IMG/VR virus record: IMGVR_UViG_3300033141_000124 | Location: 1-64,000 of that record | From: a virus | Length of the DNA stretch: 64,000 nt | Reading direction: 5' to 3' (one strand) | In this document: positions 1 through 6,000 of the stretch, one piece after another | Layout of the letters: every line of letters starts with the position of its first letter | How positions within the stretch are numbered: the stretch's first letter is position 1 | Program-made: the position numbers

Positions 1-3000
1 TTAGGTAGATTTTCTAAAATCTGTTTACCAATTTTAGTATTAAATGAGAAAGTACCTTCTTTATTCCATTGTTGACCATGCGGAATTTCTTTTACAGCAT
101 ACTCAAATATGCTTTTATCACTAAGATCATCAAAATCTTCTCCAAAGTAAATAGTGTTAGTAGGTGCAAAAGAATTAAAAAACGGTCTACCTTCAGTAAT
201 GCTCTCTAAAGAAGGACCTTGTGCACCATACTTTGAAAGATCAAACAATGGTTCATCAGGAGCCAAACCTCTAAAATTTGGTTGTCCTGATTTATTCCAT
301 TCTTCTATAAATCTATCATATCCACCTGGTGTATCTTTTAAATAATTTTTTATTCTATCTAATGCAATCTTAGTTTGTTCATCTTCTGTTTCTCCATAAT
401 AGTCTGTTGTGTATCTTACACCGTCATATATAAATCTTTTACCTGGTCCTAGATCAGCACGTGCCTGTGCAAATGCTTGATCTTTATCTTTAGCTTTATT
501 AAATACAGGAAGATAATCTCCATCCTCATAGTTCTTATAATTGAATACCATTCCTGGAGAGTAAGAACTTAGTAATCTGCTTCCTCTATTAATTTGATCA
601 GCAGCAGGACCAAATACAGTTTTTGCTGTTCCTGTAAGAATCTTTTTGTAATTGTCTGTAAAATTTTTTACACCATCAGCACTAAAATCTAAATCAAACG
701 CTCCTCTCTGTGCCATAGGTAATTCAAACACCATATCACCAGGAAACTGATAATCTCCTCCAGGCATCATCATTTGACTATTACCTAAGTTATCTATACC
801 CATGACAGGAAACTCTACATCTTCCATAGTAATAGATCCAGAGTCAATAATATTAAAAGGATTGTTTACATCAGGACTATCTTTTTTATATCCTTCTGTA
901 GAAAACACACCTGTTACATAAGTAAACGTTTCATTAGGTCCACCTGGTAATCCTCTTCTTTCTGATTTTTTATAGCTCTTTTTCATTATCTCATTGATAG
1001 ATTTAATTTAGTATTGTTCAATCTTAGTAACATTTTTCTGTTATCTGATTTTTGTCTTCTTAACAATACATGATTAGAATAATGTCTAAACTTCTTTCTT
1101 TGTACTTCTGGCTTATTATAATTTAAGTTAACTGTGTTTAGGTTTCTTATATAACCATTACACTCTGTATTCCATATAGGTTGCTCAGCATTAGTAAACT
1201 CTCCTCTATCATTAGTAATATCCCAGAATTGGTTTAATCTAAATTTGTGTTCAACTTTAGCAGAAAGTACATCTATGCTTGTTGGATTTATTATAGGATA
1301 GTTAAGCTGTCCCCATGGATCATTAAACGGAGCCATGTTTAATAATAACAATCCTGATACTTGTTCATTATTATAAATAATAGCTTGATCAAAGTTATAA
1401 TTTAAATCTTCCCATGCATCACCACCACATGCATAATCCATTTCTCCTTTGTGTACATAAGTTTCTAATTGGTATTCTATACTTCTAACTGTATTAACAG
1501 CTTGACCTGTGTTACTAATTAGATCTATTTCCCAAGGATAACTCTTACCATAGAAGTTTGCATACAAATCACATCTATCATTATGTCTCCAGAATGAGCC
1601 AACATCATAGTTAGGTTCTACTTCTATAAATGTATTATAATTACACAATGCAGGATTAGGATTTACAAACGTTGGATCTGCAGATGGACCTACTTGATAA
1701 ATTAATGGTGGTGTATTAGGACAGTTTCCTACTCCTGTTAATGTACCACCCGGATCACATCCACATTCTACTTTTCTACATCTTGGTGTAAAACCAGCTT
1801 GCATTGCTGCATCAACACTATCTGTTGCTGATGTTAAAGAATTCCAATAGCCCGTATTAGCATCATGGAATACCATTGTATATCCTGCAGGACAAGTTCC
1901 TGCATAAGGAACACCACAAACAGCCCCTGCTACTTGTGTAGCAACAGCTTGCATACTTACTTGATCATTTGCATTACATCCAAACTGATTTCCACCTGGT
2001 GGAAGTGATGCACCTTGGTTTGCCCATACTGTATTTGTTATAGAATTTACTGCTATTGAACTACCACCTGCTTGTCCTCCGTTAGGTAATGCTGTTCCAG
2101 CACCTACAAACACAGCATAAATTTCTTGTGCAGTATTTCTATTACCTAAGAATGATTGACCAGCTGCCCATGATCCAGTATTGTTTGTTGTTACACCAGG
2201 GTTAACATTAGGTGTTTGCATTGTAGCTATTAAACCAGAACCAGGAGTTTGTTGAGCTCCAGTTCCATCAGTAACTACAATTAATATTTGTCTAAAGTTA
2301 GCATCTTGAGCTCTAGCTGGATATTGTGCTGCAAGAGAACTACGTGTTTTATCATTTAATAATGCAAGTCCACCATCATTTATATTAGGTGGAGATGCTG
2401 TTCCAAATGGATTATTTGCACCTATTGCTGCATCTGTATGTGTATTACCTCCAGTGCCTGCTATCCAATTATTCAATACATTATTTGCTTCTGTTTGATT
2501 ATTATCCCCAGGATAAAATAAATTTACAGCTTGTGCTCCTGTAATTGTATTACTCATACTTAAACCGCCTGGAGATAATAAATGAAGACTTTGAGTACCA
2601 CCTTGAGCTGTAGCACCAGACCACTTTGTAAATCCTACTTGAAAGTCTCCTGCTGCCATAGGCACTCTAATACCTGGATCATTCAAAAAAGTATCTACCC
2701 AAGCTAATTGAGCACCTCCGGCTGTTAAGAGTCCACTATTTGAAACTTGACCTCCTGGAGTTAATATTTGTCCACCAGGCAATGAATTAGAGCCAGGAAT
2801 AACTTGACCACTAGAATTTAATTGAAATGGAACATAACTAGGAGCTATAAGAGTTTGTACACCAGGATTTAGTGCAGGGTTATTAACCCCAGGTGGACTA
2901 TTAGTAGTACTACCAGAAACATCCATTGCAATAACTATATCTAATTTACATCCTACTGGACCACCTGTAATATTAGCAATTACTTCTTGTACTGATACAT

Positions 3001-6000
3001 TTGATGGAGCATCAAAATTTGTTCCTTGTTCACATAATCCTGTAGTAGGATTAAAATTAAATCCTGGAGGACATTGAGGTATAGTAGTCTCAACAGTCTT
3101 GGTTGTAAAGAAATGATTTATACTTGGTAATGATAACTCAGGATGCCAGTCATGGAAAGATATCCATGCTTTAGATTTAGGGTCATAACTTACTGTCCAA
3201 GAACAATCTTCAAAATATATTGGATCTCCTAAAGTTATCTGTATATTTTTGTTTAATAGAAAACCTTGATCTTCATCATATGTAATATTTGCAATATGTT
3301 CTTTTCTAACTCTATAGTCTTTCTTCATAAAATAAACCATATCATCTGTAGCATCATATATAGTTTGACACCCAACACCTGCAACTGGATTATCTCCTAA
3401 TGGAGACTCCTCAAGAGCAGGATATTGTTTTATTAAAGTTGATGGTAAATATTCATTAAACCAATACTTCATACCTAAATTAGAAATAGGAGTTATACCT
3501 TTACCTTTAACAAATTGAAATATTTTACCTTGTGCTTGTGATATAAAGAATAAACCTGCTGGTGTATTCATAACACTTCTTAAACTTTCACATGATCCAT
3601 ACTCATTTGATAAGTCTGCGTTAACAACATTTTGCATAGGTTGACTAAATAAACTTCCGTCACCAATTGTTAACTTAGCATCAGTTAAAGTTTTAATCTG
3701 TTCTATACCTTGGAATAATTGTGGAGATAGATATGGGAAAAATACTAACGCACCTGTTTTATCAAAAGGTTTTATTACACTTACTTCCCCTTTAAAATCT
3801 TTATAATTATATGGTAAGAACTGTCTCCAGTAATCTCTTTTATCTTCTTGATCTGCTTGTAAAGAATAAATTAATCTTTTAGGATATTTAGTAAAACAAG
3901 TATCAGCAACAAGAGGATCATAATCTCTTGGCTGTATTCTACCAAATGTTGTTAACTGAGAAGAAAACTTAGTTGGAGTTAGTGATTCATCATATTTATA
4001 GAAATTGTCAAAAGATTGTATCTCAGCATGAAACATTTGATCTATATCATTATACTTATATATGTCATAGAATCTTCTTTCAACTGGTTCCTCATAATCT
4101 CTATATGGTAAATTAATTTCTGTTTCAACATAAAAATCATTTATACCATTTACATGTGTGTACATGTATGCATGAACCATAGCAAATGTTGCATTCAGAT
4201 CATCACCTATAAATACATTAAGAAAACTATTTGCAAAGCCGCAGTTACCTACACCTCTATCTAGATAAAATAAATCATTAGGTACAAGACTATCCGCTGA
4301 TCCTGGTAATAAAGTACTAAGCCCAAGAGTACTTACTGCTTGTGCTAATTGTCCAATATCAAATTTTCTTGTATCCATCCAATATCTAGGATATGGAATA
4401 TTAACTCTTAATTTATAATCATATGGAAAACCATCATATTGCCCCATCAAGAAGTCTGTAAAGATTGGCATTATACACTTTTCTGTATATCTAGATATAA
4501 ATACATCACCACTAAATATAGGTTTACTTGTATATAAAAACTCAGGAGGATTTTCTGGATCTAATTTTTCTACACAACCTCTCATTTGTAATTGCTTGAT
4601 GCCATCTAGTTGGCCATATTGATTATCTATATTAAATTTAAGAGCACCATAAAGTGCAGATATATTTCTACCAAATGGTCCTTCAGGTCTAAGTAAACTA
4701 CTATTAGGATTAGATGTACCTCCTAAAACAAATCTTGAATTATCTTCTGTTATTGGTTCAGAAAAGTCATTGCTTATAGATACTGCAACAGTATCAGGTC
4801 TATATAAATTATTTATCTTAAATTCATTATCATCAAAAGTCTGAAAAGATGATCCTATATAATTTGAACTACGTATATTAGATCTAAATCTATCTGCTAT
4901 ATCTTTTTCTATAAATTGATTATACAATCCATGAGAGTTATATTTTAAAGCATGTTGTTGGAATGATGTTAAGTTATACATTAAATCTATAACCTCTTGC
5001 CCTCCTATTGCAATATTCTTTTGCAATAGCATAAATTTCATAAATCTTTTTAATGTCTTAGGCATATTAGATTCTGCTGAGTCTTTAACTAGACCTTGGT
5101 TGGCACCACCACCTGTAAATCCTTCACCATATTGTCTAGCTAAATCTATATTCTCTATAGCAAGATCATTTAATCTTTCATCTAATTCATTTCCTGGATC
5201 TAGTATTTCTGTTAAATCATCCCATGCACCAGTAACTAAATTCTGTAAATAATCTTGTATAGTTGCCCAAGTTATGTTGCTCCATGGAAAACCAGAAGAT
5301 CCACTACTTGATGATATAGAATCATAATATGCTTTTATATTTTCTCCTGCACCTGTATATGCTGTATCTACCACAGATTCAGGAGCAGGGTTATCACCCT
5401 TCTGATTATTAGTATTGTTGTCCCCACTATTATCTGTACCTCCACCAGAATTAGAACTAAAATTACCTGTTAATGTACCTGCAGCATTTACAGCAGTAAA
5501 GGTTCCTCCTCCACCACCTATATCTTTAAATTTTAGATGCCATTCAGGATATGCATTATTCATAGCCTGTACAGGAAGTGCAGTAACATTAGGTGTACCT
5601 TGTATTTGTCTTACAGCATAACCTAAACCAATAAATGCAGAAATCAAAGCAGATATGTTTCTTAATAGCTTTTGTCCAGGATGATTTTCTGATGGTATAA
5701 ATTTACCAGATGAACTACCATGTATTTCTCCATAAATTTTTGCCTCACTTGTATTTAAGAAAGGTTTAGTAAACATAAGATCAGGAGAATGAAAACTAAA
5801 TACATCTGTTCTATAACCAGTTAGAGGAGGGAAGTTACTAATAGAATCAGCATAATCATCACAGCCTTCTGTATCTCTACTTGTTGTAAAGTATGGATCA
5901 GGTCTTAAATCATTGTATGGATAATTAACATATAAACCTTGTATATCATTACCTAATAAATTATCAGCAGCAGGAACAGTATACTCACGCATGTTCTTAA

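Follow-up and report, generated by a model that had tools for sequence, protein, structure and literature searches.

A predicted von Willebrand factor A domain on a cysteine-rich stalk in the tail muzzle protein of a marine crAss-like phage

The crassviruses belong to the most abundant of all known phages, and their host recognition is poorly understood. The stretch of DNA analysed here (the window, 64,000 nucleotides) is the first 64 kb of a single 110,543-bp contig, the IMG/VR virus record IMGVR_UViG_3300033141_000124. On its minus strand, which also carries all other features of the window described below, a gene at 986-7693 encodes a tail muzzle protein of 2235 amino acids (aa), designated P0001. 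Late in this protein lies a segment of 501 aa, and the question raised by the locus is what this segment is and what it would do on a phage tail. Its core is predicted to be a very divergent von Willebrand factor A (vWA) domain, recognisable by structure and with a complete adhesion site of the metal ion-dependent type (MIDAS). The domain is flanked by two cysteine-rich arms and is a candidate for a host adhesin.

The muzzle protein and the site of the insert

The gene, a homologue of crAss001 gp44, specifies the muzzle at the tail of an uncultured marine crAss-like podophage. This identity follows from the gene order (Ring2-Ring1-muzzle), a profile match to gp44 and a structural match with a Z score (Z) of 15.5. 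The open reading frame is assigned to PHROG 37948/15100 (virion structural protein). Directly upstream of it, Pfam identified the genes for tail ring protein 2 (8693-9367; CrAss_Ring_2, PF25702, expect value (E) 2.9e-15) and tail ring protein 1 (7710-8693; CrAss_Ring_1, PF24228, E 3.4e-8). Bayfield et al. (2023; PMC10172136) give the crAss001 order as gp40 (R2), gp43 (R1) and gp44 (muzzle). The Pfam family crAss_MUZ (PF25731) gave no match on P0001 itself in a whole-protein scan; it is present in homologues 49-54% identical to P0001, and the relative P0013 scores 4.3e-27.

A family alignment of 53 sequences (A1) was compared with gp44 by hhalign. Residues 22-395 aligned to gp44 8-395 (E 2.3e-5), and a second, weak but colinear stretch paired aa 1245-1462 with gp44 1007-1202 (E 8e-4). 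An AlphaFold (AF2) model of the C-terminal part only (aa 1180-2235, 1056 aa; predicted local distance difference test score (pLDDT) 72.3) matched 7qol_P with Z 15.5 and a root-mean-square deviation (rmsd) of 3.3 A over 285 aa, and 7qok_A with Z 14.9 over 300 aa. Since the structural alignment extends over model residues 109-1046 (gp44 305-1364), it covers both sides of the insert. The likeness to gp44 (7QOK/7QOL, PF25731) therefore consists in gene position, the N-terminal profile match and the structure of the C-terminal propeller on either side of the insert, whereas gp44 (1371 aa) contains neither a vWA domain nor a Cys-rich stalk. The best relatives in the phage database were found in Leptolyngbya phage Lbo-JY46, csAssE-Sib (annotated as 'Muzzle protein'), the Cellulophaga phages phi4:1 and phi17:2, and Flavobacterium Fpv-type phages. 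In total, 1695 muzzle homologues were obtained at E <= 0.001 among 8000 protein-collection candidates scored, and 495 in IMG/VR. The first-pass annotation of this DNA had also named the carrier as the tail muzzle protein; the label 'Tstab' that it attached to the family could not be verified.

The segment extends from aa 1533 to 2033 (window 1595-3097), between the anchors HFFTTK (aa 1527-1532) and FWRHN (aa 2034-2038). In the proteins of Lbo-JY46 and csAssE-Sib, the counterparts of aa 1530 and of aa 2020-2032 directly adjoin each other, so that the flanks occur there without an insert. The anchors are likewise only 12 aa apart in L027, L029 and L030, three of the 72 IMG/VR loci in which both could be placed. 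The segment is a true insert, absent from gp44, csAssE-Sib, Lbo-JY46 and these three IMG/VR relatives. It had been anticipated that the two anchors would be nearly adjacent in related proteins, and the limits proposed at that time (1600-3095) differ by at most 5 bases from those set by the anchors. Every motif quoted then was recovered within one open reading frame: DVSGS (aa 1591-1595), VGFTKW (1686), GNTHT (1749), ILIVVTDG (1803) and IYAVFVG (1858) in the vWA part, as well as TCPAGY (1933) and CRKVECGC (1972) in the second arm and QCPPGFNFNPTTGLC (aa 1540-1554) in the first. The insert contains 11 Cys. It is enriched in Gly, Asn, Pro, Thr and Ala and depleted in Lys, Glu and Arg in comparison to the remaining protein (Gly 12.8%, Asn 10.1% and Pro 8.0% versus 7.2%, 7.7% and 5.1%).

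The site of the insertion could be located on the known muzzle architecture. In crAss001 the crass domain forms the distal tip of the muzzle (PMC10172136 and PMC10136315); Bayfield et al. propose it as the cell-contacting part and describe the gate loop in the propeller domain (PMC10172136). Residue 1459 of P0001 aligns to gp44 residue 1200, and the structural alignment continues past the insert to gp44 1364, from which it follows that the insert interrupts a late blade of the proximal beta-propeller. By estimate from the alignment ranges this would be approximately blade 6, about two blades after the one bearing the gate loop. The insert is outside both the distal tip domain and the gate loop. 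The earlier idea of a graft at the tail tip, on the DNA-exit gate, therefore has to be abandoned in favour of a late blade of the proximal propeller, as judged from the gp44 alignments and the domain layout given in PMC10172136. The same source puts the length variation of muzzle proteins down to insertions in the crass and IG2 domains, whereas the insert of P0001 belongs to the propeller part. In the C-terminal model the HFFTTK strand runs on into the first arm and a returning strand leads into FWRHN, the confidence at these junctions being moderate to low.

A vWA domain between two cysteine-rich arms

The insert was modelled by AlphaFold from an alignment of 89 rows (A2), with pLDDT 83.2 and a predicted template modelling score (pTM) of 0.77. 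Its core (aa 1578-1930, window 1904-2962) displays a Rossmann-like vWA fold. With VIA-align, model residues 46-398, which correspond to this core, were superposed on known vWA structures with Z 14-15.6 and rmsd 2.6-3.4 A over 170-198 residues. The targets were integrin I domains, CMG2, BatB-type proteins, Mfa5 and the vWFA domain of LapA, and isolated vWA domains were covered over almost their full length. In Foldseek the best matches in the PDB were all vWA proteins as well, with the pilus-tip adhesins PitA and SpaC on top; complement C2a, TRAP, integrin I domains and the vWFA domain of LapA were also among them. The vWA matches were reproduced with the larger model of aa 1180-2235. The Rossmann-type vWA domain suspected in the first-pass annotation is thus borne out by the confident model and its structural matches.

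The five MIDAS residues all occupy the expected places relative to the strands of the model. The DxSxS motif (D1591, S1593 and S1595; window 2909-2923) directly follows the strand at insert positions 51-59 (beta1). The Thr of the site (T1751 in GNTHT; window 2441-2443) is situated in the loop that precedes the helix at insert positions 221-225, and the Asp (D1809 in VVTDG; window 2267-2269) comes directly after the strand at positions 268-276. Among 86 relatives, the set to which all conservation and occupancy values below also refer, each DxSxS residue and the Asp are present in 86 of 86 and the Thr in 81. In the order D1591/S1593/S1595/T1751/D1809 this amounts to 100/100/100/94/100%, in an insert that is only about 40% identical as a whole. 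The site is complete and strongly conserved, as had been supposed from the motifs.

Two Cys-rich arms connect the vWA domain to the propeller. Arm 1 (aa 1533-1577, window 2963-3097) is a beta segment with a CPPG[FY] hairpin (C1541-C1554), the strands of which were predicted with pLDDT 88-95. Both of these cysteines are 100% conserved. Only weak, sub-threshold hints of CBM_14 or EGF-like domains were given by Pfam for this arm (E 0.024). Arm 2 (aa 1931-2033, window 1595-1903) is a beta segment with CPxGY and CRKVxCxC motifs, mostly at pLDDT 82-95. Here C1926, C1934, C1972, C1977 and C1979 are conserved to 100%, and C1991 and C2017 to 99%. In the insert model the last vWA helix (insert positions 379-394) leads straight into the first strand of arm 2. 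The two flanking arms noticed in the first-pass annotation are therefore real features of the family, confidently predicted for the most part and with cysteines conserved to 99-100%. At two sites where Cys is normal in 83-84 of the 86 relatives, P0001 carries another residue, namely G1932 (window 1898-1900) and V1960 (window 1814-1816); this paired loss is the pattern expected if both cysteines form one disulfide. An unusual Cys is found at aa 1906 of P0001.

The closest structural parallels are pilus-tip vWA adhesins. The Gram-positive proteins SpaC (6M48), PitA (7W6B) and RrgA (2WW8) were the top Foldseek matches (E 1e-4 to 8e-4), while Mfa5 (6TNJ), from the tip of a type V pilus, reached Z 14.6 to the insert model. 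Their likeness consists in a MIDAS-bearing vWA domain that is displayed where a filamentous or tail-like structure ends, is embedded in other beta domains and is furnished with extra loops. They differ from the insert in sequence (10-13% identity) and in the carrier, which here is a phage tail protein with a disulfide-rich stalk. Pfam detected neither CnaB isopeptide domains nor a sortase signal in P0001. The muzzle vWA may work like the sortase-assembled pilus-tip adhesins, but it does not belong to them. The integrin alpha I domains 1IDO, 1QCY and 1AOX have this fold too (Z 14.1-14.4; 183-192 of their 184-201 residues could be aligned), and all five MIDAS residues recur in them at equivalent topological positions. 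In comparison to these, the muzzle vWA shows 15-19% identity and far larger MIDAS loops, has no partner beta-subunit and is joined at both ends to a Cys-rich stalk.

The fold is also common to other viral vWA proteins (N4 gp25-type, CobT-like and giant-virus VWFA proteins), with BFVD probabilities up to 0.99 and E no better than 1.7e-3. None of the BFVD matches listed is named muzzle or nozzle and none is a close relative; several of those with names are of the CobT type and the rest are mostly unannotated VWFA-domain proteins. One weak match, at probability 0.54, comes from Pseudomonas phage PaMx28, where a 483-aa protein is labelled 'virion structural protein'. A full-text literature search returned no paper joining 'von Willebrand' with Crassvirales, and the accessible parts of the related literature describe no vWA domain in a phage muzzle or nozzle.

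Exchange, loss and rate of change of the insert

The insert is not universal in crAss-like muzzles, as was implied when it was first noticed: empty sites, sites with arms only and sites with other payloads were all found. Most members of its own marine clade do have the insert, namely 114 among the 120 homologues listed and 60 of the 72 IMG/VR loci. These 60 loci contain both arms and a vWA domain with DxSxS at insert positions 56-63. In six homologues of 1813 aa and in the loci L081 and L082, the arms are joined directly and exactly the vWA domain is missing. A scaffold tree was built from 1601 columns and rooted with the insert-less proteins of Lbo-JY46 and csAssE-Sib. The arms-only proteins are placed deep within the vWA-bearing clade, which shows that their vWA domain was secondarily lost.

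In other relatives the payload has been altered or exchanged. In L026, L031 and L078 the payloads are vWA-like and their MIDAS motifs are changed. Unrelated payloads stand between recognisably the same arms in L028, L036/L068, L061 and part of L078. The coordinates of these non-vWA or tandem payloads are L028:8531-9775, L036:8669-10333, L068:8654-10318, L078:8636-11089 and L061:10265-11521, and extra CPxGY hairpin units serve as connectors in these relatives. For the alternative payloads, sub-threshold Pfam matches were obtained to PA14 (E 0.0045) and Laminin_G_3 (E 0.025), and the protein atlas pointed to a PA14-containing cluster (0.93) and to jelly-roll/ConA-like glycan enzyme domains (about 0.9). 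Apart from this site, a further large insertion occurs upstream of the vWA position in P0013, P0026, L057-L059 and L061, which brings such relatives to 2485-2730 aa, and in P0004 the segments corresponding to the N- and C-terminal parts of the insert stand far apart. This suggests a second display site nearby.

The insert is also the fastest-evolving part of the muzzle protein. Family-wide, identity is 60-85% in the scaffold and 36-50% in the insert. In the close relative P0038 the scaffold is 97-100% identical to P0001, whereas the insert is 65% identical and contains several insertions and deletions, a pattern read as recombination or strong diversifying selection. In P0037 (98% identical), 19 of 46 substitutions fall within the insert against 10.3 expected (binomial p 0.003). 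A second variable hot spot exists in the muzzle at aa 683-896 (window 5006-5647), a low-complexity region rich in Gly, Ser, Asn and Thr for which the family has no defined consensus; aa 731-896 account for 17 of P0037's 46 differences.

Much of the variation concerns the loops that carry the metal site. The blocks at insert positions 65-125, 201-215, 231-240 and 301-320 are occupied in 3-37% of relatives. The first lies directly after DxSxS, the second and third on either side of the MIDAS Thr, and the fourth after the MIDAS Asp. The loop after DxSxS (aa 1597-1657, window 2723-2905) is expanded and rich in Gly, Asn, Pro and Gln. Its block-mean pLDDT is mostly 55-81 with one short stretch at 90, and its occupancy is 0.03-0.32 over most of its length and 0.60-0.61 in two end blocks. 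It is largely missing from P0038. The longest inserts of the set (436-502 aa) belong to this window and its closest relatives. Both the composition of the insert and the sparse occupancy of these blocks agree with the early remark that the vWA loops are greatly expanded with sequence rich in Gly, Asn, Pro and Gln. A diversity-generating retroelement was considered as a source of the variability and rejected, as a template-like repeat of the insert occurs nowhere in the window. Tandem repeats were likewise discarded as the origin of the loop expansions, since none were found.

Upstream of the tail genes, several putative appendage genes were noted. A 749-aa protein (window 11912-14161) contains fn3 at aa 415-490, followed by a weak Pfam VWA match at aa 513-588 (E 2.8e-4, below the cutoff), and may represent a second vWA domain in a virion appendage of the same phage. 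Descent of the muzzle vWA as a recent paralogue of this vWA-like domain was rejected, as there is no profile similarity between them. A 168-aa protein (window 15554-16060) carries a 45-aa collagen-like G-X-Y run with GPKGDTGA-type repeats. Two large putative appendage proteins (window 16060-20628 and 20713-23088) gave only two Pfam matches between them, FlgD Tudor-like (E 5e-10) and a weak YadA-stalk (E 2.4e-4).

Possible roles of the module on the phage tail

The module is best read as an accessory, exchangeable and metal-dependent host adhesin, comparable to the pilus-tip vWA adhesins or the integrin I domains; a probability of roughly 0.6 is given to this reading. It draws on the fold and the invariance of the metal site, on the variability of the loops bearing that site, on the exchangeable payloads and on the dispensability of the domain. 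It gains indirect support from the rapid evolution of the insert and from the differing payloads between the same arms.

We infer metal binding, a host ligand, an orientation on the virion and a hexameric state for the module, as follows. The two-armed, disulfide-rich beta stalk would exit and re-enter the late propeller blade, with the vWA domain at its end. If the protein assembles into a hexamer as crAss001 gp44 does, six vWA domains would surround the tail end. The MIDAS would then hold a divalent cation, seawater being rich in both Mg2+ and Ca2+. An acidic group of a host-surface molecule would complete the coordination of the metal, the mode of ligand binding used by integrin I domains and by pilus-tip adhesins. 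The variable, expanded loops around the MIDAS residues would set the ligand specificity. The module would thereby add to or tune the host range and would be non-essential to the gate.

Several observations weigh against this proposal. No Pfam VWA match was obtained on the protein or on the insert, even at E 10, nor on the vWA core taken by itself, and in relatives the best scores were 14-19 bits for VWA (cutoff 23.8) and 18.7 for VWA_2 (cutoff 27). Neither the protein nor the insert retrieved any PDB sequence with phmmer, and the family profile A1 gave only chance-level matches in the PDB, with no vWA chain among them. Because of these sub-threshold and negative profile results, the vWA assignment is founded on the structure prediction together with the motifs. 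The lectin-like (PA14 or ConA-like) nature of the alternative payloads is likewise suggested by weak leads alone. Moreover, the insert sits in the proximal propeller and not in the crass domain proposed to contact the cell. Finally, the invariance of the MIDAS could also be accounted for by a conserved partner within the virion.

That last point leads to the possibility that the MIDAS binds an acidic residue of a fibre or appendage protein, so that the vWA domain would serve as an assembly joint. The collagen-like or fn3/vWA proteins, whose genes lie 4-8 kb upstream, would be examples of candidate partners. A constant partner is expected to keep the metal site invariant, the insert lies in the proximal propeller and hence nearer to the barrel and fibres, and the phage does encode a collagen-like protein (15554-16060) and fn3-containing proteins. 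Several vWA domains are also known to bind collagen via the MIDAS, among them the integrin alpha1 and alpha2 I domains. However, a constant partner does not predict the strong length variation of the MIDAS-adjoining loops or the rapid evolution of the insert, nor the replacement of the vWA domain by unrelated payloads or its absence in relatives. Collagen-like repeats were found in three of five nearly complete (94-100%) vWA-bearing relatives, in larger proteins and not in the closest relative, a sample too small to decide the matter. They were found in none of five vWA-less records, only one of which is complete, too few to say anything. Such docking inside the virion is considered unlikely.

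A role in DNA ejection, also raised in the first-pass annotation, would require that a MIDAS ligand shifts the C-terminal vWA helix as in integrin I domains, that the stalk relays this shift to the propeller and that the gate loop opens. The continuity of the last vWA helix with the first strand of arm 2 would suit such a relay, as would the entry of the stalk into the propeller, the domain of the gate loop in crAss001 (PMC10172136). Yet the insertion would be some two blades past the gate-loop blade, and payloads other than vWA, with no known equivalent of the helix shift, occupy the same site. The clean loss of the vWA domain in a nested lineage and the existence of relatives without any insert imply that the gate works without it. 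One lineage lost the vWA domain precisely and kept the arms, so the domain is dispensable and an obligatory role as ejection trigger is improbable; the trigger mechanism as a whole is held to be rather improbable too. The least probable account is a purely structural decoration, with the module bracing neighbouring muzzle subunits or shielding them and the metal merely stabilising the fold. The domain has been kept with a degenerate MIDAS in L026, L031 and L078, and it has no known ligand, as a decoration would lead one to expect. In contrast, that all five MIDAS residues are almost perfectly conserved indicates selection acting on the metal site as such, and the fast evolution of the loops together with the exchange of payloads suggests an outward-facing role in an arms race.

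A broader version of the adhesin reading may be entertained tentatively. The propeller site would then be a plug-in display platform, in which the conserved, disulfide-stapled stalk lets marine crAss-like phages swap payloads (vWA, degenerate vWA, PA14-like and ConA-like modules, and tandem combinations). The muzzle would be a modular host-range determinant alongside the fibres, and ligand binding by the vWA domain might perhaps be mechanically coupled to the adjoining propeller that bears the gate.

To our knowledge, crAss001 is the only crassvirus whose virion has been solved, and cell contact has been assigned there to the distal crass domain and the fibres. Unlike in this picture, a large marine branch of crAss-like phages would present a metal-dependent adhesion domain on a conserved stalk that protrudes from the muzzle propeller, and this domain can be exchanged or lost. 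As a small and separately foldable domain, the muzzle vWA is a candidate host-range determinant, and it could be a marker by which uncultured marine crAss-like phages are linked to their hosts. The Cys-rich, two-armed stalk, in turn, may be a natural scaffold for the display of foreign domains on a phage tail.

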